Part shown: positions 31,325 through 59,581 of the stretch, in pieces
Numbering within the stretch: the first letter of the stretch is position 1
Layout of the letters: each line of letters begins with the position of its first letter
Origin: Candidatus Levyibacteriota bacterium
GTDB lineage: Bacteria > Patescibacteriota > Microgenomatia > Levybacterales > GWA1-39-11
Direction of reading: 5' to 3'
Assembly: GCA_050255815.1 (NCBI GenBank)
Contig: JBLMVJ010000014.1
Location: 36,728-100,727, forward strand
Length of the DNA stretch: 64,000 nucleotides
Position numbers and translations under genes: made by a program
Notes under the pieces: model-generated
The model's database searches: none
What the model saw: only the letters and a program-made list of their open reading frames with translations
What the model was told of the DNA's origin: nothing

Positions 31325-33070
31325 GTGGATGATGTTGAAAAAGTAAAACAGAAAACAGATATAGTTGAGCTGATTGAAAGTTATATTCCCATTAAAAAAG
31401 CTGGGCGTAATTTTAAGGCTCCGTGTCCGTTCCATAATGAAAAATCTCCTTCATTTGTAGTATCCCCTGACCGGCAGATCTGGCACTGTTTTGGCTGTAA
31501 TAAAGGCGGGGATATTTTTACGTTTGTAGAAGAGTATGAGAAGACCACCTTTGCAGACGCATTAAAATATTTGGCACAGAAAGCAGGAGTGCAGCTCACT
31601 ACCTCTGTTGCCAGGTCTGAAGCAGAGAAGAGGAGGGATATGATTTACTCCCTGAATCTTTTGGCTGCACAGTTTTATGAATATATCCTGTTTTCTCATC
31701 CGGTTGGCAAAACCGCACTCAGGTACGTTCTGGATACAAGACGCCAGCCGGAAGCTCTACTCAAAACCTTCATGGTAGGGTATGCCCCTAATACCGGCAA
31801 TTCCCTCACCCAGTTTTTGCTGAAGAAAAAAACATACCAGCCGCAGGATCTGGTAGACGCAGGTTTGGCAATATTTGCCCATGGTAGGCTGATAGACTTT
31901 TTCCGGCATAGGATCATGTTCCCTATTACAGATCCTAGGGGAAATATTATTGCCTTTTCCGGGCGCGCCCTGAGCTCTGAGCAGATGCCTAAATATGTAA
32001 ATACCAAAGAAACCGCAGTGTACACCAAAGGAGAAACGGTGTTTGGCCTGAATCTAGCCAGGGATGAGATAAAAAAACAGGGGTCTGTGATTATTATGGA
32101 AGGTGAGTTTGACGTGATCTCAGCACACCGGGAAGGGATTGGAAACGTGGTGGCAGTAAAAGGGACAGCGTTAACAGAACAGCAGATAGAGCTGTTAAAA
32201 CGGTATGCCCAGAAGCTGGTATTTTGTTTTGATACTGATCCGGCAGGGACTACTGCCCAAAGGCGTTCTATCCAACTCATTGAGAATGCCGGCATTGTAG
32301 CCAGCGTTATCATGCTGCCAAAAGGTAAGGACCCGGATGAATTACTAAACACAGACCCGGTGGAATTCAAAAAAGCCGTGAAGGATGATGTGCATATCTA
32401 TGATTTTATTATTAACTCCGCGGTAAACCAGCATGACGTTAAAAGCGTGGATGGGAAGCGGGAGGTCCTAGCAAAAACCATTCCATTCCTGGCAGTTATA
32501 GATAATGAGGTTATTAAAGAGCATTACCTGAAGAGGTTAGCTGAAGCTTTGGATACGTCTTATGACTCTATTTTCAGGCAGTCTGAGAAAGAAAAGAAGG
32601 CTGAGCGCAAGCCGGTGGTTACCGCTTCTGTGAGCAAAAAATCCAGGGAAGAACTTCTCCCCCAGCATTTATTTTCACTACTGCTTTCCTCTACGCATCT
32701 TCTGGAGGATTTGCGCTTAGTGGATGCGGCATTGGATGGGGTAGCCTTCCCCAGTATTTCCTACCAAAAACTATTCCAGCTGCTAAAGTCAGACATAGAA
32801 AAGAATGAATTTAAATCTCTGGAAGTCTTTGCAAAAACCATACCGGCAGAATTGGTAGAAGCGTATGACGTAGCATTTTTAGCCCCGGTCCCTGAATATG
32901 ATGAGAAAAAGCTATCTGAGGAGCTGAAAAAAACAGCGCTGGAACTGAAAACATTAGCCGTCAAAAAAAGGCTTTCTGAGATTGCCGTGGAGTTGTCCCG
33001 GGAAACAAGCGCACAGACGGAAAATAAGCTTCAGGAGGAAGCCCAAACTCTTACCCAAAAACTCAAGTAA
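31325..33070 (+). CDS. dnaG: DNA primase.
   Basis: Zinc-ribbon (CPFHNEKSPSFVVSPDRQIWHCFGCNKGGD) and TOPRIM (IIMEGEFDVIS, FCFDTDPAG) motifs. Sits upstream of rpoD in the classic MMS-operon order. GTG start. Confidence 0.85.
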   Translation: MDDVEKVKQKTDIVELIESYIPIKKAGRNFKAPCPFHNEKSPSFVVSPDRQIWHCFGCNKGGDIFTFVEEYEKTTFADALKYLAQKAGVQLTTSVARSEAEKRRDMIYSLNLLAAQFYEYILFSHPVGKTALRYVLDTRRQPEALLKTFMVGYAPNTGNSLTQFLLKKKTYQPQDLVDAGLAIFAHGRLIDFFRHRIMFPITDPRGNIIAFSGRALSSEQMPKYVNTKETAVYTKGETVFGLNLARDEIKKQGSVIIMEGEFDVISAHREGIGNVVAVKGTALTEQQIELLKRYAQKLVFCFDTDPAGTTAQRRSIQLIENAGIVASVIMLPKGKDPDELLNTDPVEFKKAVKDDVHIYDFIINSAVNQHDVKSVDGKREVLAKTIPFLAVIDNEVIKEHYLKRLAEALDTSYDSIFRQSEKEKKAERKPVVTASVSKKSREELLPQHLFSLLLSSTHLLEDLRLVDAALDGVAFPSISYQKLFQLLKSDIEKNEFKSLEVFAKTIPAELVEAYDVAFLAPVPEYDEKKLSEELKKTALELKTLAVKKRLSEIAVELSRETSAQTENKLQEEAQTLTQKLK

Positions 33071-33173: not shown

Positions 33174-34274
33174 ATGAGCACAACAGCCGCAAAAACAACC
33201 ATAAAAAGTGACCGCGTTGCCAGCCTTCTGGCAGCAGCAAAGAAAAAAGGCTATATATCCCAAGATGAAATCTTAACCTCCTTCCCAAAACCTGAAGAGC
33301 ATATCCAGGATTTAGATTTTCTCTATGACCAGCTCATTAAGAAAAATGTAGATATTTTTGAGACGGTAGAGGAAGAAAAGGAAAACCAGAAATCTATAGA
33401 GGACCTGGAAAAAGAGCTGGAAGCACTGAACATTATCCAGGGTGGCGCAGTGACTGACCCGGTCAGGATGTACCTCAAGGAAATAGGCCGTATTCCGCTT
33501 TTGACCTTTGAACAGGAAGTAGACCTGGCAAAGAGGCTGGAAAAAGGTGATATGCGCGCACGTAAGAAACTCGTGGAGTCCAATTTAAGACTGGTGGTTT
33601 CTATTGCTAAAAAGTACGTGGGTCGCGGTATGACTTTACTCGATTTGATCCAGGAAGGGAACCAGGGACTGATACGCGCGGTAGAAAAGTATGACTGGAA
33701 AAAAGGTTTTAAGTTTTCTACCTACGCCACCTGGTGGATCAGGCAGGCTATTACCCGCGCTATAGCAGACCAGGCCAGGACTATCCGTATCCCGGTCCAC
33801 ATGGTGGAAAATATTAATAGGTTTATGCGCGTGCAGAGAAAGTTAATGCAGGAGTTGGGACGCCAGCCTACCCCGGAAGAAATTTCAGATATTTTAGAAA
33901 TTGACCCAGATAAAGCGCGGGAAATTATAAAGATTTCCCAGCAGCCTGCTTCTCTGGACACTCCGGTAGGGGATGAGGAAGATTCATATCTGGGAGACTT
34001 TATTTATGACATTACCGCACCTACACTTTTTGATACCGCATCCCGTGGCCTGTTAAAAGAACAGCTCGGCTCCGTGCTTTCAACATTATCTGACAGGGAG
34101 AGAAGAGTACTGGAAGAGCGGTTTGGCCTCAGAGACGGCAAGCCAAAGACTTTGGAAGAAGTGGGCCGTATGTTTGCGGTTACCCGTGAGCGTATTAGGC
34201 AGATAGAAGCAAAAGCACTGAGAAAATTAAGGCACCCAAGTCGTGGGAACAAATTGAAAGACTACCTCGAGTAA
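33174..34274 (+). CDS. rpoD: RNA polymerase sigma factor, primary sigma-70 (compact 366 aa).
   Basis: Region 2 ([29 protein letters not shown]), region 3 and region 4.2 ([20 protein letters not shown]). Confidence 0.9.
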
Positions 34275-34332: not shown

Positions 34333-35061
34333 ATGGCAAAACCGGAAGCGCAGCCACAGAACGGAAAGATTGACCCCAGGTACATATTAAGTGCCACGGT
34401 TGACCCTGCGTTCAAAGAAGCTTTTATTATGGCTCCCCGGCACCTTCAGTTCCCCACCAGAAACCAGTTTGCCTTTTTAAAAGGTATTATGGGTATTAAT
34501 CCAAAAAAAGAACGGGTTGTTGTCCGGACTGTTACAGAATATACGGTCCAGACCCCGGGAGAAGGTGAGCGTCCTCTTACGTCTGCAGATGAAGAAGAAA
34601 TTATAACAGCCGCGAAAAGACTTATAAATAATGGTGCAGGAGAAAAGCCCACCAAAAAGATAACTCTTGAGAAGGCGCTTGAACTCATGGAAGAGCAGGT
34701 TATGTACAGGGTGCCTATAAGCCTGCATACACCGCTGGGTGAGAGCCAAGAGATGTTTTTAGAATCATTAGTAAGAGATAAAAGCGCAAAAGACCCGGAG
34801 ACTGCAGTAGCAGACGCCATGCTCAGAGATGATTTGGAGGCAGCTATGCGCATTGCAAGTCTTACCCCAAGAGAAAAAGATGTCCTGAGAAAAAGGAATG
34901 GTGTTTATACCGGAGTGAGCAGAACTTTAGATGAGTTAGGTACGGAATATGGGATAACCCGTGAACGGATACGCCAAATAGAGGCAAAAGCATACAATAA
35001 GATCAGGGGTAATTTTGCGGCAAGAAGAAAGTTGTTAGGATATTTATCACAACACAAATAA
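34333..35061 (+). CDS. Sigma-70 region 3.2/4-only protein with a novel N-terminal domain (paralog A).
   Basis: C-terminus [50 protein letters not shown] is near-identical to RpoD region 4.2, and ISLHTPLGESQEMFLESLVRD aligns to RpoD region 3.2 ([20 protein letters not shown]). No region 2 is present. The N-terminal ~120 aa are shared only with paralog B. Confidence 0.6.
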   Translation: MAKPEAQPQNGKIDPRYILSATVDPAFKEAFIMAPRHLQFPTRNQFAFLKGIMGINPKKERVVVRTVTEYTVQTPGEGERPLTSADEEEIITAAKRLINNGAGEKPTKKITLEKALELMEEQVMYRVPISLHTPLGESQEMFLESLVRDKSAKDPETAVADAMLRDDLEAAMRIASLTPREKDVLRKRNGVYTGVSRTLDELGTEYGITRERIRQIEAKAYNKIRGNFAARRKLLGYLSQHK

Positions 35062-35067
35062 GAAATT

Positions 35068-35757
35068 ATGACACAAGAAACAGGGAAACATATTGGTAAA
35101 GTTGATCAAAGGTATGTGTTGCCAAAAGACGGATTAGACGAAAGGTTTAAGGAATCTTTTATAACGGCCCCATCCCACCTGGAATTCCCAACCAGAAACC
35201 ATTACGCTTTTCTGGAAGGAGTAATAGGGATAAACCCTGCTCAGGAGCGTGTGCTCCCGGGTACCATTGTGGATACATGGAAACAGGGAATTATACAGGG
35301 AAATGGGAACTGGAGATTTATGAGCCCCGCAGACAAAAGGGAGTTTATGAACGCGGCAAAAGCTATTACCAATGACCGGGTTCCGGTACCTGATATAGAT
35401 ACAGCCCTGAGAATATTAGGTGATCAGGTTTATATGGTAACAGATGTGAGTCTGGACAAGCCAGCAGGAGACACTACAAAAGGTACAACCCTCATGGATT
35501 TAATTGACATTCCTGATACTTCCGACCCTGTGAAAAAAACTCTCTCTGCAGAAGATATAGAAGAGTTATTGGCAGAGTTAACGCCCAGGGAAGCAGACGT
35601 GCTGCGTAAAAGGCAGAGTATGACCCAGGAAGAAATTGGCAGGGAATACGGGGTAACCAAGCAAAGGATTGATCAAATTGAGAAAAAAGCCTACAGAAAG
35701 TTGAGGCAGCCCCACTTAAGAGAGAAAGTAGTTTCTTTGATGGAAAGGATCTCCTAA
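35068..35757 (+). CDS. Sigma-70 region 3.2/4-only protein with a novel N-terminal domain (paralog B).
   Basis: C-terminus LTPREADVLRKRQSMTQEEIGREYGVTKQRIDQIEKKAYRKLRQ (region 4.2). The N-terminus shares with paralog A the motif GK(I/V)D.RY(I/V)L...FKE.FI.AP.HL.FPTRN..AFL.G..GINP..ERV. Confidence 0.6.
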   Translation: MTQETGKHIGKVDQRYVLPKDGLDERFKESFITAPSHLEFPTRNHYAFLEGVIGINPAQERVLPGTIVDTWKQGIIQGNGNWRFMSPADKREFMNAAKAITNDRVPVPDIDTALRILGDQVYMVTDVSLDKPAGDTTKGTTLMDLIDIPDTSDPVKKTLSAEDIEELLAELTPREADVLRKRQSMTQEEIGREYGVTKQRIDQIEKKAYRKLRQPHLREKVVSLMERIS

Positions 35758-35772
35758 CCCCTCCCCAATTAC

Positions 35773-36624
35773 TTAGTGCACCAGGAGTACTCCAATAAAA
35801 ACCAGAACTGATGCAATAAGTTTTTTTAAAAGATTATCCTTTTCCCGTAATAGTATGGCTGCCAGAATAACCGTTACTACCACTTGAGTCTGGCCTATGG
35901 TACTGACCTGGGAAACCTGGGCTTTTTGTATGGCAAAATAATACGCATATGCCTGGGTACAACTGAAAAAGACCAGCGGTAGCATCTTTTTTAAAAAAGA
36001 TCTATCAGTTGCCACCTGCCATTTCTTAACAGCCTTGGGGTAACAAAATAGAAGGAGGACAAAAATTAATAGGTTAGCAATGGGCAGGTAAGACACTACA
36101 TCATACGTTTTCAGGATTATTGCATCCAGGGAAACAGCCACCCCATAGAACAGTGCGACAATGAGTGCATAAGAAGTGCCGCTGTTAAATTTAAACCCCT
36201 TCTTAATATTGGCGACCAGCATAACTGACCCCAGGATTAAAATTGCACCCAGTACTTTTTCAAAACCAAATATTTCCCTCAGGAAAAATACGGAAATAAG
36301 GATGGTTATAATCACCCTGACAGAAGTGAGGATGGTAACTTCTGAGGCCTCAATTACTTTTAATGCCTTGAAAAGGAAAATGGTCCCAAATCCCCATAGC
36401 AGCGCAGAGAGAACAAAAAGTACCAAAGTCCAGCTTAATACGGGCAGTTTAAATCCCAGGAATAGGGAAACAACGGAATATGCAATACTTAGGAAAAAGG
36501 CAAAAAGAATGGTGTAGAGAACCGGGTCGCTTTTATCATCCCTCATCAAAACCCTTTGGAGAATATTATAGATAGATACTGCAAAAACACTTATGAGGAT
36601 AAGGCTAAACCAATCCATACACAA
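35773..36624 (-). CDS. EamA/DMT-family transporter.
   Basis: 283 aa with ten TM helices in two internally repeated halves, typical of the drug/metabolite transporter superfamily. Confidence 0.65.
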   Translation of the reverse strand: MCMDWFSLILISVFAVSIYNILQRVLMRDDKSDPVLYTILFAFFLSIAYSVVSLFLGFKLPVLSWTLVLFVLSALLWGFGTIFLFKALKVIEASEVTILTSVRVIITILISVFFLREIFGFEKVLGAILILGSVMLVANIKKGFKFNSGTSYALIVALFYGVAVSLDAIILKTYDVVSYLPIANLLIFVLLLFCYPKAVKKWQVATDRSFLKKMLPLVFFSCTQAYAYYFAIQKAQVSQVSTIGQTQVVVTVILAAILLREKDNLLKKLIASVLVFIGVLLVH

Positions 36625-36681
36625 ATTATATCAGAAGGTTTATTGAAGGTAAGAATTTGCTCATGCACCGGAATGATTCCT

Positions 36682-36697
36682 TGTGATAAAAATCACT
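36682..36697. promoter_or_regulatory. CRP-type palindrome TGTGATAAAAATCACT (TGTGA-N6-TCACt), centred about 40 bp upstream of the 36731 start codon.
   Basis: Read directly from the sequence. One mismatch from the E. coli CRP consensus half-sites. Confidence 0.4.
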
Positions 36698-36730
36698 GAT
36701 ATAAAAGTAATTTTTCAATATAAATGACTT

Positions 36731-37399
36731 ATGAAATATATTATCGTTGTTTTGGTGCTAGCTCTGCTGGAGTTATCAGTTTCTACTGTTTTTGCACAAG
36801 GCGTTCACGCGCCCGGGACAGGGATTGTTAACCCCACTACAAAAGGTCAAAGTCAGGGGACAGGAAATGCTTTGCAAGCGACACCCTCATTGAAAATTAC
36901 CCCCACTCAAGACCAAGACAGGTTGAGGACATTTCTTAGAGACCAAGAGCAAGTCATGGACAAAGATAGGGATAGACTACAAGAAAAAGATAAAATTATG
37001 CAGCAGGATCAAGACCGAACAATGCTTGGAGCAAAAGTTTTGATTCAAGCAAGGGAAGATAATAATGAACTAGACTCTCAAGTAGAAAACCTGGCAACTC
37101 AAGTTAAGAATACAATACAAAATACTTTAAAATTGGAGCAACAAATTAGAGACCGTAACTTTTTAATGCGCCTTTTTTGGGGAGGAGATAAGAAGACCGG
37201 ACAGGAACTTTATCAGATAACAACGCAAAACAAAGACCGTATCAGAGAAATGGAACGATTGGTAGAAAGTTGCAACTGCAATGAAGAAACAAAAAATCTT
37301 CTACGTGAACAGTTAAGGATTATGGATCAGGAGCAAATGCGGTTGAATAATATGGCACAAGAAGAAATTAGAAAAAAGGGATTATTCTCTTGGTTTTAG
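36731..37399 (+). CDS. Secreted coiled-coil protein rich in D/Q/R/E/K.
   Basis: Signal peptide (MKYIIVVLVLALLELSVSTVFAQG), then low-complexity repeats (QDQDRLRTFLRDQEQVMDKDRDRLQEKDKIMQQDQDRTM) and heptad-like coiled-coil. Confidence 0.5.
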   Translation: MKYIIVVLVLALLELSVSTVFAQGVHAPGTGIVNPTTKGQSQGTGNALQATPSLKITPTQDQDRLRTFLRDQEQVMDKDRDRLQEKDKIMQQDQDRTMLGAKVLIQAREDNNELDSQVENLATQVKNTIQNTLKLEQQIRDRNFLMRLFWGGDKKTGQELYQITTQNKDRIREMERLVESCNCNEETKNLLREQLRIMDQEQMRLNNMAQEEIRKKGLFSWF

Positions 37400-37653
37400 A
37401 TCTCCCATTTTTAACTCCGCATGGTTGTAGATTAAATCTACCGGATTTTGAATAATACTTGGGGAACCTTTTATTGAGCAGGAAGAAATTCAACAATCCA
37501 CAGTTCTTGTTTTAAAGCGCCACTTATAGCATCATGAACTAACTCTCTGCGATTATATGTAGAAATAACGATGCTTATTAAGGATGACATGGAATTATAT
37601 CAGAAGGTTCGTATAGTCCATGAAGAGGTGTTAAAAAATGAGGCTAATTTTAT

Positions 37654-37728
37654 TGGCTCCCCCGCGAGGATTCGAACCTCGAACCTTAAAGTTAACAGCT
37701 TTCTGCTCTACCATTGAGCTACAGGGGA
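37654..37728 (-). tRNA. tRNA-Asn (anticodon GTT).
   Basis: Manual fold of the reverse complement gives TCCCCTG/TA/GCTC-AATGGTA-GAGC/A/GAAAG-CTGTTAA-CTTTA/AGGTT/CGAGG-TTCGAAT-CCTCG/CGGGGGA/G/CCA. The T-loop GGTTCGAATCC is canonical, the anticodon loop is CT-GTT-AA, and CCA is encoded. Confidence 0.85.
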
Positions 37729-37784
37729 ATGCTCATTCCATCTCAACTCTGCAGTTAAGATTCTTACGATTATACTCAATTACG

Positions 37785-37808
37785 CACAAAATTCCAATAT
37801 CCTAATTT
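37785..37808. repeat. 24-nt direct repeat, copy 1 (cacaaaattccaatatcctaattt), upstream of the 37857 gene.
   Basis: Exact 24/24 match to copy 2 at 38613..38636. Confidence 0.6.
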
Positions 37809-37856
37809 GGGGCGTAATGAGAACAAAGCATTATAGCCTTTGATATAATCCAAGAA

Positions 37857-38318
37857 ATGACCACAGAAGACGTATTAAAAATTGTGGATTACATTGCTAC
37901 AGAATGTAATAGGTTAAAGAATAAGTACATAGAGAATTCTTTAGAGGCTGATTATGTGTGTATATTTTCTCATAGTGAAGATGAATATAATCAGTTACTA
38001 GAGGTAGCTAAAACGTTAGGTAAAATTGCTACAGATACTCCCACAGGTCCAGTATTTGCTTTTACCACCCGCCCAGAAACGGTTATGGGTAGTCCAAAAC
38101 TGTTAAAAATCAGAAAGCCGGATGAAACCAGGGCACAGAGAGGAGACTTGGATCTAAATACAAATTATCCCGAGTTTAAGAAGAAGTATTTAAACAATAA
38201 TGAGTTCACTCTTATAGTGAGGCCCGACTTTGAAATGATTGAGTTAAAAGATGACTCTTTTGATGCGCTGCTTTATTTTTCAAGTATCCCACTCAGTAAG
38301 CAATTAGGGATAACATAG
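37857..38318 (+). CDS. Hypothetical protein (153 aa).
   Basis: ORF preceded by the 24-nt motif and a TATAAT-like box (ttgatataatcc). No family recognised. Confidence 0.5.
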   Translation: MTTEDVLKIVDYIATECNRLKNKYIENSLEADYVCIFSHSEDEYNQLLEVAKTLGKIATDTPTGPVFAFTTRPETVMGSPKLLKIRKPDETRAQRGDLDLNTNYPEFKKKYLNNNEFTLIVRPDFEMIELKDDSFDALLYFSSIPLSKQLGIT

Positions 38319-38322
38319 ACAG

Positions 38323-38382
38323 GATTTAGGGGTTTGGGATGAGGGATACCAGGTGGTCTAGGAGTTCTTGGTAGTCACACAT
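38323..38382 (-). pseudogene. Remnant of a GH130-gene 3' end, encoding [19 protein letters not shown].
   Basis: Lies in frame directly after the TAG stop of the 68-aa ORF. About 55 nt are homologous to the 3' end of the GH130 gene at 39321..40343 ([17 protein letters not shown]), including the 34-nt repeat 38351..38384. Confidence 0.4.
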
Positions 38383-38384
38383 AG
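38351..38384. repeat. 34-nt repeat, copy 1 (aggtggtctaggagttcttggtagtcacacatag).
   Basis: 33/34 match to 39343..39376, which lies within the 3' coding end of the GH130 gene. Confidence 0.6.
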
Positions 38385-38385
38385 G

Positions 38386-38592
38386 CTATTCTTTGTGCTC
38401 AACTTTTAAGATTACATTCTTTTTCACCCCTGCAACCGCGGGAAGCAAATGGTTTAAGACCTGTTCAGCAGTCATCCTAAACTCTCTTCCCCTAGCTGAA
38501 ATCTTTACCCACCCTTCTTTATCCCTAAAATAACGTTCAGTGAAGTTTTTAGTTCCTATAAAAATGGTATAGCAGTCATTTGTCAGCTTCAT
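38386..38592 (-). CDS. Small hypothetical protein (68 aa). Possibly the 5' part of a disrupted gene.
   Basis: ORF only. It is followed in the same frame by a stop and then the GH130 C-terminal remnant. Confidence 0.3.
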   Translation of the reverse strand: MKLTNDCYTIFIGTKNFTERYFRDKEGWVKISARGREFRMTAEQVLNHLLPAVAGVKKNVILKVEHKE

Positions 38593-38612
38593 GCTTTGAT
38601 TTTAGCACAGGA

Positions 38613-38636
38613 CACAAAATTCCAATATCCTAATTT
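38613..38636. repeat. 24-nt direct repeat, copy 2, upstream of the 38698 gene.
   Basis: Exact match to 37785..37808. Followed by a TATAAT-like box (tttattataatc). Confidence 0.6.
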
Positions 38637-38697
38637 CATAAATCTAAAACATCTTAGGTCTCAGATTCCCTTCAGGACTTTATTATAATCTCTTGGA

Positions 38698-39285
38698 ATG
38701 AGAAGAATTATTACCACTACCATGATTACGCTGGATGGTGTTATGCAAGCTCCTGGTGTTTCTAAAGAAGATGAGAGTGAAGGTTTCAAATACGGAGGAT
38801 GGCAGGTGGGGTGGGATAAAGAAGCAGACGCAATAACAGACAGAATTCAAGCAGAACCTTTGGACCTACTCTTTGGAAGACGTACTTATGATATTTTTGC
38901 CGGATATTGGCCGCACCATGAAGATGAACCACATTGGGGAAAACCGTATAGTAAGGCGAAAAAGTATGTAGTTTCTCATAAGCCGGTTAAGCTACCATGG
39001 AAAAACTCCCAACTTATCTCAGGAGATGTTGTGGGTGAAATTAAAAAACTAAAGGATTCAAATGGTCCAAACCTTTGGGTGTGGGGCAGTAGCTCTCTTA
39101 TTCAAACACTGCTTAAAAATAACCTCATTGATAGAATGTATCTCTGGATATTTCCCCTTACTATTGGTACTGGTAAAAAACTATTCGCAGAAGGCACAAT
39201 TCCGGAGCGCTTTAAAATGGTGGATGGGAAAATTACCTCAAACGGTATTATATTTGCAGCCTATGAACCATCAACTCCTCTTTAG
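38698..39285 (+). CDS. Dihydrofolate-reductase-like protein (RibD C-terminal domain family).
   Basis: MRRIITTTMITLDGVMQAPG...FGRRTYDIFAGYWP...LWVWGSSSLIQTLLKNNLIDRMYLWIFPLTIGTGKKLF is typical of the bacterial RibD_C/DHFR-like family. A paralog lies at 51999..52559. Confidence 0.7.
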   Translation: MRRIITTTMITLDGVMQAPGVSKEDESEGFKYGGWQVGWDKEADAITDRIQAEPLDLLFGRRTYDIFAGYWPHHEDEPHWGKPYSKAKKYVVSHKPVKLPWKNSQLISGDVVGEIKKLKDSNGPNLWVWGSSSLIQTLLKNNLIDRMYLWIFPLTIGTGKKLFAEGTIPERFKMVDGKITSNGIIFAAYEPSTPL

Positions 39286-39320
39286 CAGCTGAAGCATTAA
39301 ATAAGGTTGAAGCCTTGATT

Positions 39321-40343
39321 TCATTCCTGAATTAAGGATACAAGGTGGTCTAGGAGTTCCTGGTAGTCACACATAGCTAGGCAGATTCCCTGGTCACCGC
39401 TTCCGTAGTATACATAGAGATTTTCCCCGTATACCACTGCGCCTTCCGGAAACGCCACATGGTTTACTATGCCATGCAGTTCCCGCTCTGTCTCCGGTTT
39501 TAACACATGGTCCACATTTGCCAGGATCTTCCGGGGATTATGTAAATCCAGGAGAGCCGCGCTAATGGACCACTCCGGGTGGTTTCCCACTTTACTGATA
39601 GCGCTATAGATAAAAAGCCACCCGTGCGGAGTTTTAATAGGCACCGCACCTACTTCATTTCCCCGGTCCTCAGTTGGCTTCATCACTACATATTCTTCAT
39701 ATTCTTCATTTACTATCCTATTCATCCGTTCTTTTGAAGGGTAGAAGAGGTCATACAGGTCATCAAACTGCGCCATCATGATGGTTGCCTTAGGGCTTTC
39801 CAGTTCAAAGGTAAAGAGCATAGTGTACTTCCCGTTAATTTTTTCCGGGAACAGGCAGGCAGCTTTAGAGAAAAGGTCCGGTCCTATAATTCCGTGTTTA
39901 TTCCAGTGGATAAAATCCTTGCTGGTTGCCAGTGCAATCCTTACCTTTTGCTCATGGCCTGCGCCGCCTACAGCCGTGTAGTAGAGATAGTAGACGCCAT
40001 CTATCTTTGTCACCCGCGGGTCTTCGCACCCCAGGCCGTTTTCATAACTTTCCGTAGGGGAAATAAGCGGCTCTTCAAACCGGTCAAAATGCATACCGTC
40101 CACGCTTTCTGCGTATCCCAGGGAAGACATATACGCGCCTTCTATATCAGGATGCACGTCATTTGTAGCCCTATAAATCATGCGGAAAAAGCCGTTTTCA
40201 TAAATGACCCCGGGGTTTAAGACCGACCCTTTTTCCCAATCATGGGACGGATCACGCTCTATGATGGGATCCCCCCTAAACCGTCTTAATTTCATAATAA
40301 TTATTGTAACAGTAATTTTGTTTAGTACACAAGAGCAACTCAA
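39321..40343 (-). CDS. GH130-family (formerly DUF377) glycoside hydrolase or phosphorylase, single domain.
   Basis: [21 protein letters not shown] motif and beta-propeller-like repeats. The same motif family occurs in the two double-domain proteins at 57606..61393. Confidence 0.65.
39343..39376. repeat. 34-nt repeat, copy 2, inside the GH130 3' coding end.
   Basis: 33/34 match to 38351..38384. Confidence 0.6.
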
Positions 40344-41701
40344 AAATCCTGCTTCAGGATTTCCGGATGCTTATCATGGAGAGTCAAAATTAATTCCCCA
40401 AAGAGTGAATTCACCCAGGCAAACCAATGGCGCGTATAGTGGTGCGCATCATCCACATCTATGCTTTCATGCATATAAAATGTTGTTCCATGTGTCTTTT
40501 TCAGTGTCTTTAAGCACTCCGCTATTTCCTGCGTATCCTCTGTGGTCAGCGCCTGCATAATAGTTGCCATGGGCCAGAAATGGTCACAAATCCCTACATG
40601 CGGGGAAGTGAGTCCGCAGGCAACCTGGCCTTTTGCAAAAAATGAATTCCACTCTGAAAGGATCAGTTTCCTGGTGTTTTGGTATAACTCGTCTTGTACG
40701 CCACAAAATCCCAGGTAGGGAAGGCTTAACAGGCTGGGGATATTAGGGTCATCCATAATGCAGCTGGAGCCAAACCCATCTACTTCATACGCATAGATTT
40801 TGCCAAATTCTTTATGGTCCACAATTCCCCACCGGGAAATTCCTTCCTCTATCTGGTTAGCAAGAAGAGAGGAGCGTTTTACTAAATCTACCGCCCCCAG
40901 TTCCTCCAGGATTGGTTTTATTTTGCGCAGGTACACTACGGCCATGGCATTTGCAGGGATGATATACGGGAACGCTGTCTCATCATCTGAGGGACGGAAG
41001 ACACAGCGGGAAAGTCCGCAGCGTTTTGAAGGGTACCCATACCCGCTCAGCCGTACGGCAGGGTGGAGGTGTCCGGAATGCGTTTTAAACTGGTACAGGA
41101 ATTCATGGTTGTCTTTATTCAGCGTATTTTGCTCTATGTGGATTACTTCCAGCGCTTTATCAACCGCCTGGATCCAGCGGTCATCAAATGGGGTAGTGTC
41201 TTTAGTTTCCTCAAAGTATCCATAAGAGAGGCGGAAAAATGCTGCCAGGCTGTCCAGCTCATATTTCCGTTCAAAAACTTCTGCTTTATGGTGGTCATTT
41301 ATTTCCCGCTTGAATGCATTTGCATAAGGGTCTGAGACAACACAGAGGGATTGTCTGTGGATGAGGCCTTTAAAAAGAGTTTTGATTTCCTCATCCTGTT
41401 TAATAAACCGCAGATAGGGCCATACTTGATTAACGGAATCACGCAGCCACATGGCCGGTATATCCCCGGTAACTATAAAGGTATCCGGGTGTCCTTCCCG
41501 CTCCTGATGATATACGGTAGTATCCAGCGTATTAGGGAGACATTGGGAAAACATTCTGCGGATGTCTTCATCTGTGATCTTTTCAGAAACAGCAGTAATA
41601 GTTTTTTCAATTACGTCACTTCTGAATAGCCGTTCATGCGGTTCCGGCCGGGAATTTAAGTGGGAAAAATTCTGCAGGTCAGGAGGATTTTTATAGGGCA
41701 T
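40340..41701 (-). CDS. GH125-family protein (metal-independent exo-alpha-1,6-mannosidase family, DUF1237).
   Basis: The [12 protein letters not shown] motif is characteristic of GH125, and the 453-aa size fits an (alpha/alpha)6 barrel. Confidence 0.65.
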
Positions 41702-51998: not shown

Positions 51999-52559
51999 GT
52001 GGCAAAACTATTTTTGTTTATGATGGTGTCTTTGGACGGATATTTTGAAGGGCCTGAGCATGACCTTTCCTGGCATAATGTGGACCGGGAATTTGTTGAT
52101 TTTGCCATAGAACAGACCGGCCAGGTTGGCACGCTCCTGTTTGGAAGAAGGACGTATGAGCTGATGGAAAATTTTTGGCCATCTTCCCAGGCGCAGGATG
52201 ACCCGGAAACAGCTAAGCTGATGAACAACACCCCTAAAATGGTATTTTCTACAACCCTGGAAAAAGTCCATGAGACAAAAACCTGGAAGCATGTAACATT
52301 AGTGAAAGAAGTAAATGTTGAGCAGATAAACAAACTAAAAGAAGAGTCCGCCAAGGACCTGGCAGTATTTGGAAGCAATGGCCTTGCAGTCAGTTTGCTG
52401 GAGCTGGGGTTATTTGATGAATTGCGGATCATGATAAACCCGGTAGTGATAGAGAAGGGTACGCCTCTATTTTATGGGCTCAAGGAAAAGAAGAAGTTTA
52501 CCTTAAAAAACACAAAAGTTTTCAATTCCGGGAACATTCTCTTAACATACACAACATGA
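51999..52559 (+). CDS. Dihydrofolate-reductase-like protein (RibD_C family), paralog of 38698..39285.
   Basis: LFLFMMVSLDGYFEGPEHDLSWH...LFGRRTYELMENFWP. Confidence 0.7.
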   Translation: MAKLFLFMMVSLDGYFEGPEHDLSWHNVDREFVDFAIEQTGQVGTLLFGRRTYELMENFWPSSQAQDDPETAKLMNNTPKMVFSTTLEKVHETKTWKHVTLVKEVNVEQINKLKEESAKDLAVFGSNGLAVSLLELGLFDELRIMINPVVIEKGTPLFYGLKEKKKFTLKNTKVFNSGNILLTYTT

Positions 52560-52909
52560 TCCAAATAAAACGGGTATATGAAGACCCTGATAAACAAGAC
52601 GGGTTCAGGATCTTAGTAGATAGGATCTGGCCCAGGGGAGTTTCAAAAGAAGAAGCCCGGGTTGATTTGTGGTTAAAAGACATAGGACCTACAACTGAGC
52701 TGCGGAAATGGTTTGGCCATGAGGTCCCAAAATGGGAAGGGTTCCGGAAAAAATACCAGGCAGAGTTGAGGGAAAAACAGAATCTGCTTGATGAAATCAA
52801 GAAACAGGAAAAAGAACATACAACCGTAACGTTATTGTTTGGGGCAAAAGATGAGGATCACAACCAGGCAGTGGTTATCAGGGATGTGTTAGGGGAGAAT
52901 AACCGCTAA
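52556..52909 (+). CDS. DUF488-family protein (YeaO/MTH938-like).
   Basis: IKRVYEDPDKQDGFRILVDRIWPRGVSKEEARVDLWLKDIGPTTELRKWFGH is a conserved DUF488 signature. Confidence 0.65.
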   Translation: MIQIKRVYEDPDKQDGFRILVDRIWPRGVSKEEARVDLWLKDIGPTTELRKWFGHEVPKWEGFRKKYQAELREKQNLLDEIKKQEKEHTTVTLLFGAKDEDHNQAVVIRDVLGENNR

Positions 52910-53782
52910 TGAAATCAGCAAGTTAAATACCAGAAGGTTCAAAAGGGAGAGCCCAAAAACTTTTCTTGCCCACCTGATATCATCATGAGTTTTGAATCCC
53001 TGCAGCGCCCTAAGAAGCCATAAAATTCCCACGGTAAGCATACCAGCAGCATAAGCGTACTTAGTGAATTGGAATAACGTTAGAGAAAGGCAAGCCAATA
53101 TAAAAAGTATGATGTAGGTTATGATATGCAGCTTTGTTTCTGCAATGCCGCGTTTTATAGGAAGAGCAGGAATGTGTGCCTTTTTATAATCTTCCATCCT
53201 AAAAATGGAAATGGCATAAAAATGCGGCATTTGCCACAAAAATAAAATGAAAAACAGGAGAAGTGCTCCCAGATCAAAATGGTTTGTAGCGGCAAGGTAT
53301 CCGCTCACCAGCGGCACAGCACCTGAAACTGCACCCATGTGTACCCCCAGAATAGAGTGCCGCTTGGTATAGGTGTAGATGCCAATATAAAACACAAACC
53401 CCAGCGCCGCCGCAGCAAGAACAAGCCAGTTGGTAAAAAGAGCAAGCGTAGACACCCCTATAACCGCCAGGATGAAGGCGTACAGGAGCGCATTTTTTGC
53501 AGGTATGAGTTTAACAATAGCCGTCCTTTGTTGGGTCCGCTCCATTTTGCTGTCTATATCCCGGTCAATGTAGTTATTTAAAACACACCCGCTGGCAATA
53601 GAAAAAGCCATCCCTACCAGGACGCCAAATAATGCCCCCGGTTGGATAGACCCCTGAGTGCCAAGCATAAAACCGCCAAAAGCGGCTATGAGGTTTCCTC
53701 CTATAATACCGGGTTTTGTGATATAGAAATATGCCTTCCAAATGTTTCCGCCGGTATAACTGCTGAGGGAAAAAGATTTCAT
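52889..53782 (-). CDS. cyoE: Protoheme IX farnesyltransferase (heme O synthase).
   Basis: UbiA-family motifs (NNYIDRDIDSKMERTQQRTA and a second Asp-rich motif), nine TM helices, and a position at the end of the cyo operon. Confidence 0.8.
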   Translation of the reverse strand: MKSFSLSSYTGGNIWKAYFYITKPGIIGGNLIAAFGGFMLGTQGSIQPGALFGVLVGMAFSIASGCVLNNYIDRDIDSKMERTQQRTAIVKLIPAKNALLYAFILAVIGVSTLALFTNWLVLAAAALGFVFYIGIYTYTKRHSILGVHMGAVSGAVPLVSGYLAATNHFDLGALLLFFILFLWQMPHFYAISIFRMEDYKKAHIPALPIKRGIAETKLHIITYIILFILACLSLTLFQFTKYAYAAGMLTVGILWLLRALQGFKTHDDIRWARKVFGLSLLNLLVFNLLISLAVILP

Positions 53783-53788
53783 GAAGAC

Positions 53789-54151
53789 TTATTTATGGAT
53801 TCCTTCCTCATTTTGGATGTAGGTATTTATATCAGGGGTCATGTTGTAATTTAAATGGTCCATAATCCAGATAGACCCTATGACAATCATTAGGACAATA
53901 AAAACAGTTGATAGGAATAGCTGGAGGTTTAATCTGGGCTTTGATTCCTGCCCCAAATGGAGGAAGTACAACAGTTGTATGAGCAGCTGGACAACCGCAA
54001 AAACCGGCAGCAAAATACCCAGAAGGGCATCAGGCGGAAACACATGCAGGGTTTTCAGGTGATACATCACTAATACATAGCTTCCCAGAGTTAAGACAAG
54101 GGATAGGATAAACCCTATGAGATAATTGGAAACTGTTTTTTTGATCCTCAT
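53789..54151 (-). CDS. cyoD: Cytochrome bo3 quinol oxidase subunit IV.
   Basis: 120-aa three-TM protein in the conserved position between subunit III and cyoE. Confidence 0.6.
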   Translation of the reverse strand: MRIKKTVSNYLIGFILSLVLTLGSYVLVMYHLKTLHVFPPDALLGILLPVFAVVQLLIQLLYFLHLGQESKPRLNLQLFLSTVFIVLMIVIGSIWIMDHLNYNMTPDINTYIQNEEGIHK

Positions 54152-54720
54152 GAAATTGCCCCCATTAAATATACAATAGTAAAAATAAATATCCAGACAA
54201 TATCAAGAAAGTGCCAGAAAAGACTGAGCTGTTTTACTTTCCCCAGATTAGAGTCTGTAACTCCCCGTTTGTACAGGTAAAAAATAAGGATTCCAAGCCA
54301 GATGCTGCCGGCAAAGATATGCATTCCATGCGCCCCAATAAGGGTAAAAAAAGAAGAGAGGAAGGCGCTTTTTTGCGGTGTATGCCCCTCCTGTATTAAG
54401 TGGGAAAATTCAGACAGTTCCATGGATAGAAAGACAAGTCCCAACAAGAGGGTAGAGGCAAGCAGGAGAATGGTTTTCTTCTTGTCTTTTTGTCCGGCAT
54501 AGACGGTTGCTATGCCGCAGGTAAAACTGCTGACCAAAAGGACAATGGTTTCAGAGAGTACAAAAAGCGGATTGAAGATGCGGTGGATTGAGATTCCTCC
54601 AAAGGTATTATTATGCAGCACCGCGTACGCCGCAAAAAGCACGGCAAACATAATAAGGTCTGTCATAAGGTATATCCAAAACCCAAATAACGCTTTTTCA
54701 GAGGAATGGTGTTCAGCCAT
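54148..54720 (-). CDS. cyoC: Cytochrome bo3 quinol oxidase subunit III.
   Basis: Five-TM COX3-family protein. Start moved to the ATG at 54720 (MAEHHSS), which still overlaps the cyoB stop by 8 nt. Confidence 0.75.
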   Translation of the reverse strand: MAEHHSSEKALFGFWIYLMTDLIMFAVLFAAYAVLHNNTFGGISIHRIFNPLFVLSETIVLLVSSFTCGIATVYAGQKDKKKTILLLASTLLLGLVFLSMELSEFSHLIQEGHTPQKSAFLSSFFTLIGAHGMHIFAGSIWLGILIFYLYKRGVTDSNLGKVKQLSLFWHFLDIVWIFIFTIVYLMGAIS

Positions 54721-56689
54721 GGTGGACCCTTTCTCTTTCAAGTTTTGCTACATCTGCCGCTTTCAATACATATTCCGTGTCATCATTAAATGTCCTTTTT
54801 ATCACGCAGAAGATTGCGCCTATAGCCCCGAGCACAATAAGCCAGACCAAATGCCAGACAAAGGCAAACCCAACAAGGAAAATGCATCCTGCCAGATACA
54901 TGCCCATGGCTGTATTTTTAGGCAACGTTATATCCTCATACACCACCCGCTGTTTCTTTTTACCCGATTCTTTCATCTCCCAAAATGCATCCCGGGATTT
55001 CACTTCCGGGATAACAGCAAAATTGTAAAACGGGGCAGGGGAGTGTGTTGCCCATTCCAGAGTCCTGCCGTTCCAGGGATCACCCGTAAGGTCCTTCAGT
55101 TTTTTCCGCTGCCTGATGCTGACAACAACCTGGATTATCTGTGAAGCAACTGCTATCCCTAAAATGCATGCCCCTATAAAAGAGGTGATAAACAGCGGCT
55201 GCCAATGGGTTGCAGCGTCATAATGGTCAAGCCTTCTGGTTGCGCCCATCATGCCCAGAATATACAAGGGAACAAAGGAAACAAAAAATCCAACAAGCCA
55301 AAGCCAAAAGGAAATCTTTCCAATACGTTCATTCAGCCTAAACCCGGTCACTTTTGGGAACCAATACGTTATGCCGGCAAAGATGCCAAACACTGCGCCC
55401 CCTATAGCCATAGTATGGAAATGCGCTACTAAAAATAAACTGTTATGCAGCTGGAAGTCAGCCGGAGGAAGTGCCAGGAGCATGCCTGCCATGCCTCCAA
55501 AGGTAAAGGTAGACATAAATCCAAAAAACCACATCAGGGGGGTATGGAATCTGATCCTGCCTTTATACATGGTTCCCAGCCAGCTTAAGAATTGGACGCT
55601 GGTAGGGATGGCAATAAACATGGTCATAATGCCAAAGAACGCATTAATATCCGCGCCGGACCCCATAGTGAAAAAGTGGTGGAGCCAAACCCAAATAGAG
55701 AGGACAGTGATACCTATTGCGCCGGCAACCAAAGAGACATAGCCTGCCAACCTTTTTTGGGAGAATGTTGCAACAACCTCAGAATAGACGCCAAAAGCGG
55801 GAAGGATAAGGATATACACCTCCGGGTGTCCCCACATCCAGATAAGGTTTACATACATCATGGCGCTCCCCCCCAATGTAGCGGTAAAAAAGTGCATGCC
55901 AAACAAGCGGTCTAATGAGAGAAGGGCAGTGGTTGCAGCCAGGATAGGAAAAACAGTGATGATCAAAACTGAGCTGCAAAGGGATGTCCATACAAATAAC
56001 GGCATTCTCATAAGGCTCATGCCCGGTGCACGCATTTTCAAAATGGTAACCAGGAAATTGATTCCCCCCAGTGTTGTCCCAAGCCCTGAAACCTGCAGGC
56101 TCCAGATCCAATAATCCACGCCAACCCCCGGACTAAACTGGGATTCTGACAGGGGCGCCACCGCAAGCCAACCGGTAGCAGAAAACTCTCCCCCTAAGAC
56201 AAAAAACAGGTTCACTAAAATTGCACCGGCAACATAGAGCCAGAAACCCAGGGTATTCAAAAACGGGGAAGCAAGGTCCCTGGTGCCTATCTGCAGGGGA
56301 ACAATAATATTTAAAAGCCCGAACAAAAAACCCATGGTAACAAAAAAGACCATGATAACACCGTGGGCGGTGAATACCTGCTGGAAGTGGTCGGCAGACA
56401 GGTATCCGTGGGATGCTCCTACTGATATGGATTGTTGTGCCCATATCATGAACGCGTCCAAAACGCCACGGATAAACATGAGAAAGGCAACAATTATGTA
56501 CATGATCCCGATTTTTTTTGGGTCCACGGCAGTTAACCATTCACGCCAGAGCCATTGCCACCTTTTCAGTTTTGTAATCAGAAGGACGGTTGCTATCATC
56601 ATGGCGGTGACAAAAACCGTACCGCCTATGGTGAACCACTCATGGGGTAATGCACTGAGAGTAAGACGGCCAAAAATAAATTCAAGCAT
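54713..56689 (-). CDS. cyoB: Cytochrome bo3 quinol oxidase subunit I (heme-copper oxidase catalytic subunit).
   Basis: 658 aa with canonical HCO subunit I features (HPEVYILILPAFG; the histidine-ligand pairs HH..TMG and VAHFHTM). Confidence 0.9.
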   Translation of the reverse strand: MLEFIFGRLTLSALPHEWFTIGGTVFVTAMMIATVLLITKLKRWQWLWREWLTAVDPKKIGIMYIIVAFLMFIRGVLDAFMIWAQQSISVGASHGYLSADHFQQVFTAHGVIMVFFVTMGFLFGLLNIIVPLQIGTRDLASPFLNTLGFWLYVAGAILVNLFFVLGGEFSATGWLAVAPLSESQFSPGVGVDYWIWSLQVSGLGTTLGGINFLVTILKMRAPGMSLMRMPLFVWTSLCSSVLIITVFPILAATTALLSLDRLFGMHFFTATLGGSAMMYVNLIWMWGHPEVYILILPAFGVYSEVVATFSQKRLAGYVSLVAGAIGITVLSIWVWLHHFFTMGSGADINAFFGIMTMFIAIPTSVQFLSWLGTMYKGRIRFHTPLMWFFGFMSTFTFGGMAGMLLALPPADFQLHNSLFLVAHFHTMAIGGAVFGIFAGITYWFPKVTGFRLNERIGKISFWLWLVGFFVSFVPLYILGMMGATRRLDHYDAATHWQPLFITSFIGACILGIAVASQIIQVVVSIRQRKKLKDLTGDPWNGRTLEWATHSPAPFYNFAVIPEVKSRDAFWEMKESGKKKQRVVYEDITLPKNTAMGMYLAGCIFLVGFAFVWHLVWLIVLGAIGAIFCVIKRTFNDDTEYVLKAADVAKLERERVHHG

Positions 56690-56692
56690 AGT

Positions 56693-59540: not shown

Positions 59541-59581
59541 GATTATCCTACGGAAAGGCTCTGGATAAAGAATAACACGTT

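Follow-up and report, generated by a model that had tools for sequence, protein, structure and literature searches.

Results

The locus belongs to a metagenome-assembled genome of Candidatus Levybacteria (CPR) and was analyzed within a single stretch of 64 kb, which we refer to as the window. Beside a tRNA-Asn gene (GTT; 37654..37728, minus strand), called by ARAGORN and matched by the Rfam tRNA model with 67 bits, the layout reads A1, g153, B1, x68, A2, RibD_C, and B2. Here, A1 and A2 are copies of one short repeat (motif A), B1 and B2 are copies of another (motif B), and B2 is the 3' end of a GH130 gene. A sequence-only reading of the same DNA had described two units of the form A, gene, B beside the tRNA; both are present, but that description passed over x68, a complete gene of 68 codons between B1 and A2.

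The first of the small genes, g153 (37857..38318, plus strand), encodes a conserved hypothetical protein of 153 aa and carries an extended -10 box, TGATATAAT, 7 nt before its ATG. The protein has no Pfam match, its family is typically 154 aa long, and its 223 homologues (best non-self identity 70%) are found in unrelated contexts. RibD_C (38698..39285, plus strand), a DHFR-family gene (Pfam PF01872, E 2.8e-18), has a TATAAT of its own, 8 nt ahead of the start codon. Both g153 and RibD_C are of an accessory type found in many genomic contexts. Between them, x68 (38386..38592, minus strand), with its stop codon 1 nt from B1, encodes a complete 68-aa protein from a large conserved family with >2000 homologues at 80-90% identity, several of them exactly 68 aa long, and its structure model has a pLDDT of 92.9. 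The protein is weakly similar to the N-terminal half of the Holliday-junction resolvase RusA but lacks the part of RusA that bears the catalytic aspartates, and it is found alone in unrelated contexts. That x68 might be a degraded piece of GH130 was ruled out (E = 41), as was truncation at the joint, given that the family core ends in ...VEH and that some members have exactly its length. The order x68-then-EamA in one related locus (L052) was also discarded as an ancestral state, since the EamA gene there is not an orthologue of the one in the window.

These genes sit in a small AT-rich island at about 36.6-39.3 kb, bordered on the left by conserved dnaG, rpoD, and sigma-like genes together with EamA, and on the right by conserved GH130 and GH125 genes. 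The island adjoins the 5' (promoter) side of tRNA-Asn. Low GC or GC3 was found in g153, RibD_C, and a 222-aa gene (z -1.5 to -2.6), with a GC z-score of -2.6 for g153; gene-wise GC and GC3 did not single out g153 or RibD_C as the newcomer, both being atypical. The region 3' of GH130 is different in each of ~38 related loci. RibD_C adjoins GH130 convergently in four relatives as well (L005, L013, L021, and L027), and a tRNA lies close to GH130 in five (L005, L020, L021, L032, and L033), while g153 and x68 were never found beside GH130 in the related loci. An Rfam search of 36300-39600 returned the tRNA as the sole match, so neither A nor B coincides with a riboswitch or other known RNA.

A third short repeat occurs at 36624..36640, where its minus-strand reading, AACCTTCTGATATAATT, forms an extended -10 box directly before the EamA start, and again at 37593..37609, directly before an N-terminal remnant of a GT2 glycosyltransferase (39 codons, 37474-37590, minus strand; GT2 Pfam positions 1-32, E 0.034). 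The two copies agree at 17/17 positions with a spacing of 969 nt (BLAST E 0.01), and could conceivably match by chance.

The intact GH130 gene (39321..40343, minus strand; Pfam PF04041, E 1.1e-41) probably starts with MKLRRF... at ~40295 and is paired in operon-like fashion with the GH125 gene (40340-41701). Its orthologues are 84-91% identical in 38 loci. Motif B2 (39331..39376, minus strand, core 39343-39376) is the 3' coding end of this gene, in which it takes up 16 codons, (A) plus 15 residues. The other copy, B1, lies at 38339-38384 on the same strand, with its core at 38351-38384. The 34-nt element with 33/34 identity that had been noticed in the sequence-only reading was recovered and proved to be longer, extending to 46 nt at 42/46 identity, and the assignment of its second copy to the GH130 coding end was borne out by the PF04041 gene and the shared residues. 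Motif B has exactly two copies in the 64 kb. Homology between them stops at 38384/38385, or reaches ~38388 when a 1-nt indel is tolerated, and the longest exact runs that they share are 17 and 16 nt.

Together with a tail, ...LIPNP, and a TAA stop codon (38326-38328), B1 makes up a dead GH130 3' fragment (38326..38384, minus strand) encoding the same 15 residues as the resident gene. All five differences between B1 and B2 over these 15 codons are synonymous (P ~0.001; 4 random substitutions would all be silent with a probability of 0.0013), with a pS of ~0.43-0.54. The two copies are identical at 42/47 positions, and comparing B2 with the GH130 genes of other species gives 41/47 (L041) and 40/47 (L020). 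The natural tails differ, IPNP* in B1 and IQE* in B2, with the B1 tail falling within the spread among relatives. The fragment is stranded between g153 and x68 and is parted by x68, A2, and RibD_C from the intact gene, which keeps B2. No second remnant of a GH130 end was seen in any relative checked.

Motif A is an exact 24-mer, CACAAAATTCCAATATCCTAATTT (minus-strand reading AAATTAGGATATTGGAATTTTGTG), at 37785..37808 (A1) and 38613..38636 (A2), and the reported identity of its copies was confirmed at 24/24. Allowing up to 3 mismatches, there are just two copies in 64 kb, against 0 expected, and their flanks are unrelated, with similarity stopping abruptly at the repeat edges. The motif is partly dyad-symmetric (AAATT-N10-AATTT). 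A1 is additionally bracketed by a 7-bp inverted repeat, ATTACGC / GCGTAAT (37779..37818), with a DNA fold of -8.6 kcal/mol (z -4.2) that 0/200 shuffles equaled; this inverted repeat is unique in the window (0.04 expected), and its arms are missing at A2. At the level of neutral divergence seen in the B pair, 24/24 identity would have a probability of ~1e-6 to 5e-3, so the A pair would have to be younger than the B pair or constrained. The perfect identity implies that motif A was duplicated recently or is under constraint. Two other classes were rejected: a dif/Xer-like site, since by inspection the inner arms are not palindromic, and CRISPR-like repeats or transposon target-site duplications, the repeat lengths being long and variable and no matching genes being present.

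The generic leaderless promoter in this genome, counted at 18 genes of the window, is a TATAAT positioned 6-9 nt ahead of the start codon, and g153, x68, RibD_C, and EamA are each self-contained and leaderless, with a -10 box of their own. The sequence-only reading had each copy of A followed by a TATAAT-like box. The boxes are there, but they are generic to the genome, and on the plus strand the two units have 35 and 47 nt between A and TATAAT, a difference of 12 nt. On the minus strand, motif A lies at the -35 position of two promoter-like sites, with spacers of 17 and 15 nt. One of them, TTGGAA-17-TATAAT (37769..37797; 10/12 consensus matches), is ~40 nt upstream of the tRNA-Asn 5' end, and its -35 hexamer (37792-37797) falls within A1; promoter-like sites are not commoner in the region than in shuffles, and this one is argued by position alone. 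The other, found by direct reading, consists of TTGGAA in A2, a 15-nt spacer, TGcTAAAAT, and 6 nt to the ATG of x68 (38599..38625, minus strand). Elsewhere, x68 homologues likewise carry a -10 box at 6-9 nt from the ATG but lack motif A. Motif A may have a promoter role on the minus strand; the unequal distances weaken the case for one operator or promoter common to the two plus-strand genes.

No ORF of at least 120 aa in the 64-kb window had a Pfam match to an integrase, transposase, or other recombinase. DNA folding of 38319-38390 and 39286-39380, run for either strand, yielded no attC-like hairpin (z -0.5 to +1.1, as in shuffles). The 25-nt 3' end of tRNA-Asn occurs a single time in the window even with 3 mismatches and has no duplicate there. 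Further copies of motifs A and B were not found in 54 fetched related loci, where the search for motif A tolerated as many as 5-7 mismatches, according to the batch of loci, and gave only chance-level matches, none close to homologous genes. The 24-mer of motif A, the only repeat scanned there, had 0 exact matches in metagenome contigs, and viral-contig scans gave 0 for the A core and 0 for B.

Discussion

Its codons show B1 to be a non-functional GH130 3' end of 46-59 nt that diverged under purifying selection and came from another lineage. Its differences from the resident gene are exclusively synonymous, and it is about as diverged as the GH130 of other species, so it derives from the functional gene of a different lineage, with a donor at roughly species-level distance. 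We read the A, B, A, B pattern as a scar that additive recombination left in a small, AT-rich island of accessory genes, at a probability of about 0.65: foreign or homeologous DNA would have been added next to GH130, with the older neighbor kept. The proposal in the sequence-only reading of a recombination-driven locus stands to this extent, with repeats that would stem from recombination, a B1 that is a stranded piece of a foreign GH130 allele, and variable DNA downstream of GH130 in ~38 loci.

The locus is probably an ordinary recombination scar, analogous to the products of homology-facilitated illegitimate recombination (HFIR) and to "displaced orphan" arrays. Such displacement arrays are known from T6SS effector-immunity modules in Vibrio cholerae and from Rhs/CDI orphan C-terminal modules, and they retain shifted 3' ends of the old gene (PMC5361080). 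The likeness lies in a conserved anchor gene with new DNA beside it, an older module shifted along with a short anchor fragment, a fragment that reveals diverged donor and recipient alleles, and no involvement of a recombinase. At our locus, a truncated anchor end (38326-38384) lies beyond the new DNA, the intact GH130 adjoins the new DNA, and the two alleles have diverged. The differences are that the anchor is a GH130 glycoside phosphorylase/hydrolase whose extreme 3' end is the retained piece, that the added genes are convergent, housekeeping-like accessory genes rather than toxin-immunity pairs, that a single displaced relic is present and no array, and that the host is a CPR bacterium. 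The identical 24-nt repeat A also calls for an extra explanation.

Read as such a scar, the locus would offer a clean sequence-level footprint of between-lineage recombination in an uncultured CPR genome. The stranded gene end, with its synonymous-only changes, suggests that DNA from a relative at species distance was added beside a conserved gene without mobile-element machinery, and it may illustrate how very small accessory islands expand in reduced genomes. The locus opens no new mechanism and answers no standing question, and it is a caution that ordinary recombination can produce regular "motif-gene-motif" layouts.

Two routes to the present arrangement appear equally parsimonious. In route (i), HFIR would have brought in DNA comprising x68, RibD_C, and GH130, anchored in GH130/GH125, with an illegitimate joint 46 nt inside the old GH130 end, and the old end would have been displaced along with g153. 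Alternatively, in route (ii), a single insertion would have placed a foreign fragment (g153, the GH130 relic, and x68) between tRNA-Asn and RibD_C, with a 24-nt target duplication yielding motif A. Under both, motif A would be a young in-situ duplicate holding the -35 or upstream part of the leftward tRNA-Asn promoter, and it would now also give x68 a -35 box. Route (i) needs a second event for motif A; HFIR combines a homologous crossover in the anchor gene with an illegitimate joint at a few bases of microhomology, and descriptions of it usually have deletions there, not short duplications. Route (ii) calls for a donor in which a truncated GH130 end was already beside x68, as well as a mechanism for duplicating a 24-nt target. 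The inverted repeat bracketing A1 suggests that both flanks of A1 belong together, so route (i) would fit better than route (ii). We infer the order and number of events, and a sister strain in the "before" state was not found.

As an alternative account of the first repeat, motif A may be a functional regulatory module, either part of a -35/UP region or a dyad-symmetric operator, with its identity kept by selection. It would serve the minus-strand promoters of tRNA-Asn and x68, or regulate the two divergent gene pairs jointly, and B would be an unrelated scar; the idea is compatible with our main explanation of B. The TTGGAA in A, 17 nt from the TATAAT of tRNA-Asn and 15 nt from the TGcTAAAAT of x68, speaks for such a role, and the fact that A occupies -35 in both minus-strand promoters could be due to selection, not accident. 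The partial dyad symmetry and the significant inverted repeat around A1 hint at a function too, and constraint would explain a perfect identity beside a diverged B pair. Against this, the 64 kb contain only two copies, the homologues of x68, g153, and RibD_C in other genomes have none in front of them, 24/24 identity is rare for two independent binding sites, the inverted-repeat arms are absent at A2, the plus-strand -10 offset differs by 12 nt, and the regional count of promoter-like sites is no higher than in shuffles. On balance, we regard a regulatory module as unlikely.

Motif A may also be compared with SPDIR, which leaves short patches of 3 to ~100 bp and has been demonstrated only experimentally, in Acinetobacter, at very low frequency (bioRxiv 10.1101/2023.11.22.568220). 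SPDIR gives an isolated patch that matches an ectopic sequence of the same genome exactly and lies between non-homologous flanks. Motif A and the 17-nt repeat are built alike, and the 24/24 identity of A between unrelated flanks is consistent with a SPDIR-type ectopic patch, as a matter of consistency only. The two differ in that any direction or mechanism of copying at A would be hypothetical, and the -35 position could instead reflect selection.

A dedicated cassette locus beside tRNA-Asn, in which A would be the 5' and B the 3' recombination site and a recombinase encoded elsewhere would insert or exchange gene units, would account for the regular layout (A, gene, B, then x68, then A, gene, B), for the sharp repeat edges, and for the accessory-type genes from many contexts that are enclosed. 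The third repeat pair adjoins the locus with a similar spacing, and x68, with its weak likeness to the RusA N-terminus, lies exactly between B1 and A2. We nevertheless consider a cassette system, which the sequence-only reading had favored with A and B as paired sites, very unlikely. B is GH130 coding sequence, a homologous gene end with synonymous-only divergence and not a site; it forms no attC-like hairpin, no recombinase is encoded in the 64 kb, the tRNA 3' end has no duplicate, and no motif copies turned up in the other sequences searched. In addition, relatives hold no second GH130-end remnant, every gene has its own promoter, and x68 lacks the catalytic-aspartate part of RusA and occurs alone in unrelated contexts. 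Integron arrays lie beside attI and an IntI integrase, a tyrosine recombinase, and each cassette ends in an attC site, an imperfect inverted repeat able to form a single-stranded hairpin. Integron cassettes are mostly promoterless and co-oriented and are expressed from a common promoter, Pc, and proteins of the DHFR family and small proteins of unknown function are typical cassette cargo. Our locus resembles them in its succession of small accessory genes but has no IntI integrase in the 64-kb window and no attC hairpin or core sites, its genes are in mixed orientation (x68 is opposite) with their own TATAAT or TAAAAT 6-8 nt before the ATG, and its 3' motif is a fragment of a neighboring gene.

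Interleaved direct repeats in the order A, B, A, B are also the classic signature of an in-situ tandem duplication, here of an ancestral A-gene-B unit whose enclosed gene later diverged or was replaced. This is highly improbable: the enclosed genes are unrelated, the flanks keep no residual similarity, the complete and unrelated gene x68 stands at the supposed joint, and A and B differ greatly in divergence. In-situ decay of a dead copy, moreover, would not yield the synonymous-only, between-species divergence of B1. A strain-chimeric or mis-joined contig has to be weighed as well, given that the contig comes from a metagenome-assembled genome and that strain-variable hotspots are prone to misassembly. 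However, the exact runs in B (17 and 16 nt) and in A (24 nt) are presumably shorter than the usual final assembler k-mers and should not cause joins in the assembly graph, the B1/x68 and x68/A2 junctions hold no repeat for a false join, and all ORFs in the region are intact with homologues, so that an artefact is scarcely credible.

A far-fetched idea is that A, perhaps with gene-end homologies (B) and the 17-nt promoter repeat, marks a site of undescribed CPR gene capture. Such a process would be integrase-free or use an integrase in trans, and would insert leaderless genes one at a time, each with its own promoter, next to tRNA genes; x68, RusA-N-terminal-like and exactly at the joint, might participate.

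Genomic islands that target tRNA genes use a tyrosine integrase and have att sites that arise when the tRNA 3' end is duplicated. They share with our locus the accessory genes beside a tRNA and a GC content below that of the surroundings. They differ in that the window has no integrase and no duplicate of the tRNA 3' end, and the repeats at our locus are not tRNA-derived. The closest homologues of RibD_C are themselves located just after a tRNA gene, in that case tRNA-Trp.

Results

The locus lies on a 118.5-kb metagenome-assembled contig of Candidatus Levybacteria (CPR/Patescibacteria). On the plus strand, dnaG (31325-33070) and rpoD (33174-34274) are followed by two paralogues carrying only sigma regions 3-4 (34333-35757), a minus-strand EamA transporter gene (35773-36624), a plus-strand gene for a 222-aa coiled-coil protein (36731-37399), and, both on the minus strand, a 39-codon GT2 N-terminal remnant (37474-37590) and tRNA-Asn (37654-37728). 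Next come the first copy of the 24-nt motif A (A1, 37785-37808), the plus-strand gene g153 for a 153-aa hypothetical protein (37857-38318), the first copy of motif B (B1, 38339-38384), the minus-strand gene x68 for a conserved 68-aa protein (38386-38592), A2 (38613-38636), and the plus-strand DHFR-family gene RibD_C (38698-39285). B2 (39331-39376) lies within the minus-strand GH130 gene (39321-40343), beside GH125 (40340-41701, minus strand). The 36.4-39.3 kb stretch is more AT-rich than its flanks, with low GC or GC3 in g153, RibD_C, and the 222-aa gene, and the island genes are complete and have independent promoters. Entries 100% identical to the g153, x68, and RibD_C proteins are found at NCBI in a Levyibacteriota genome (ACM3IJ_02240, ACM3IJ_02245, and "dihydrofolate reductase family protein"), and GH130 orthologues (84-91% identity) come from Levybacteria-type genomes.

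The repeat feature is real and statistically solid. The exact 24-nt repeat described in the sequence-only reading was recovered (24/24), and the shared 3' motif proved longer than described, at 46 nt with 42/46 positions matching. Across the 64 kb, both motifs occur exactly twice at up to three mismatches, where no occurrence is expected, and flank alignments show similarity ending abruptly at the repeat edges. Neither motif was present in 54 fetched related loci or in viral contigs, and metagenome contigs, scanned exactly and for motif A only, gave no match. Searching the whole window for repeats, with a sensitive self-BLAST in addition, returned one other local repeat, a 17-nt pair at 36624-36640 and 37593-37609 (17/17, spacing 969 nt, BLAST E 0.01). 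Its minus-strand reading gives an extended -10 box (TGATATAAT with a further 8 nt upstream), which stands directly before EamA in one copy and directly before the GT2 remnant in the other. The pair could represent a displaced promoter, a further scar of recombination, or a chance match.

Motif B, the more striking half of the feature, has an ordinary explanation. As had been proposed, B2 is the 3' coding end of GH130 and specifies the final residues of the protein. The minus strand of B1 specifies 15 residues identical to those of B2, after which come an unlike tail (PNP) and a separate stop codon; no further GH130 sequence precedes it. All five nucleotide differences across these 15 codons are synonymous, giving a proportion of differing synonymous sites of about 0.43-0.54; in simulation, the peptide survived four random substitutions unchanged with a probability of 0.0013. 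Over 47 nt, B1 matches B2 at 42 positions, while B2 matches GH130 of the related loci L041 and L020, which belong to species different from that of the window (GH130 protein identity 88-90%), at 41 and 40. Because the divergence is synonymous only and of between-species level, B1 did not arise by decay of the resident GH130; it is the 3' end, now stranded, of a functional GH130 from another lineage. Across some 38 related GH130 loci, the C-terminal tail following ...SL[IM] is variable (stop, EK, ER, NNQ, or PKE) and is the point at which synteny breaks, and none carries a second GH130-end remnant.

For motif A, the suggestion of a promoter module shared by the two plus-strand genes is weakened by spacing: the distance from its end to TATAAT is 35 nt at g153 and 47 nt at RibD_C, so it is no fixed part of either promoter. 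A TATAAT-like box does follow each copy, but such boxes are generic in this window, where at least 18 genes have TA[TA]AAT (TATAAT or TAAAAT) 4-11 nt, mostly 6-9 nt, before the ATG and lack Shine-Dalgarno spacing (e.g., at 4906, 20567, 25275, 30832, 34333, 42318, 46911, and 63204). Boxes this close to the ATG imply a leaderless architecture, and leaderless transcription of first genes appears to be widespread in this genome. On the minus strand, motif A reads AAATTAGGATATTGGAATTTTGTG and contains TTGGAA, which in A1 lies 17 nt upstream of a TATAAT (10/12 consensus matches) that is itself about 40 nt before tRNA-Asn and in A2 lies 15 nt upstream of TGcTAAAAT, itself 6 nt before the x68 ATG. Homologues of x68 elsewhere have the same close -10 box and no motif A. 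A 7-bp inverted repeat, ATTACGC ... GCGTAAT, brackets A1 (37779-37818) and not A2; it is unique in the window (0.04 expected; fold z = -4.2) and could represent an operator, a hairpin interrupted by inserted DNA, or mere chance. Without the 24-mer, the A1 flanks would make a small ATTACG-GGGG-CGTAAT hairpin. Neutral allelic sequence as diverged as the B pair would be identical at 24/24 positions with a probability of about 1e-6 to 5e-3. This points either to a recent in-situ duplication of motif A or to strong constraint on it; motif A may have a promoter role on the minus strand.

The small genes have relatives in many settings. The g153 protein is one of a conserved family of 154-aa proteins whose function is unknown and which occur in unrelated contexts; RibD_C belongs to a very large DHFR-like family. 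A RibD_C gene is convergent with and close to GH130 in the related loci L005, L013, L021, and L027, and the closest relatives of the window RibD_C (83-84% identity) directly follow tRNA-Trp. Homologues of its clade lie repeatedly just downstream of tRNA-Trp or tRNA-Gln (L054, 36-109; L017, 5853-5924; L053, 1524-1595; L005, 2382-2453), which suggests movement of the gene together with tRNA genes or its insertion beside them. Several relatives have tRNA genes 0.2-2.5 kb downstream of GH130. In L020, whose GH130 is 90% identical to that of the window, tRNA-Asn (6226-6298) is about 165 nt past the GH130 stop and in the opposite relative orientation, implying inversion or independent placement in one lineage.

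The x68 protein is full length for its family, which comprises over 2000 highly conserved proteins of 68-78 aa without a Pfam domain; it stands alone in varied contexts. The family profile has a weak match to RusA, the Holliday-junction resolvase, over residues 3-71 (PDB profile E 0.056; hhalign probability 83%), sharing the motif RYYR..G..VSA.G..[FY]R, and ends just before the stretch with the RusA catalytic aspartates (D70, D72, and D91). The structure model is confident (pLDDT 92.9), and a Foldseek search with it gave no significant PDB match.

Discussion

The recurrence of motif A, a gene, and motif B beside tRNA-Asn had suggested a cassette or hotspot locus. We consider a dedicated cassette system very improbable: no cassette machinery and no further motif copies turned up in anything searched, and window ORFs of at least 120 aa encode no integrase, transposase, or other recombinase domain. 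Unlike tRNA-integrating islands, this locus has no duplicate of the tRNA-Asn 3' end, and, unlike the attC sites of integrons, the candidate attC regions fold no better than shuffled sequence; an Rfam search of 36300-39600 returned tRNA only. Two simple insertions, each independent of the other, could not have produced the interleaving A1 < B1 < A2 < B2. The order needs either a single event in which the two motifs took part together or a single event followed by the copying of a short sequence.

Two routes, equally parsimonious, fit this order. By homology-facilitated illegitimate recombination (HFIR), incoming DNA from a related lineage, carrying x68, RibD_C, and GH130, would have paired in GH130/GH125, its far end being joined illegitimately 46 nt inside the recipient GH130 end. 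The old GH130 end (B1) would thereby be stranded with its old neighbor g153, and motif A would have been copied later as a short ectopic patch. Alternatively, a foreign fragment (g153, the GH130 relic, and x68) may have entered the interval from the tRNA-Asn promoter to RibD_C, duplicating a 24-nt target (motif A). The inverted repeat spanning both A1 flanks favors HFIR; the recurrence of tRNA genes and RibD_C, and never of g153 or x68, beside GH130 in relatives favors insertion. Displacement arrays attributed to HFIR have the 3' end of the previous gene shifted back (PMC5361080), and SPDIR, a process leaving short ectopic patches, produces patches of 3 to ~100 bp (bioRxiv 10.1101/2023.11.22.568220). 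These match the two elements of the HFIR route. We regard the locus as a new instance of a recombination scar of a kind already known, and to our knowledge such footprints have rarely been described in the host lineage.

Other features of the window are worth recording. Another RibD_C paralogue, only distantly related (29% identity), is encoded at 51999-52559 as part of a group of small genes of accessory type. After a complete operon of cytochrome-oxidase type (COX1, COX2, COX3, COX4_pro, and UbiA; 52889-57559), apparently uncommon in CPR genomes, come two GH130 paralogues of double length (644 and 603 aa; 57606-61393). Directly downstream of dnaG and the full-length rpoD, the tandem paralogues (34333-35061 and 35068-35757; 41% identical) contain sigma-70 regions 3-4 only. 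As sigma-70 binds the -35 box through region 4, these proteins might be promoter-binding regulators or sigma mimics.
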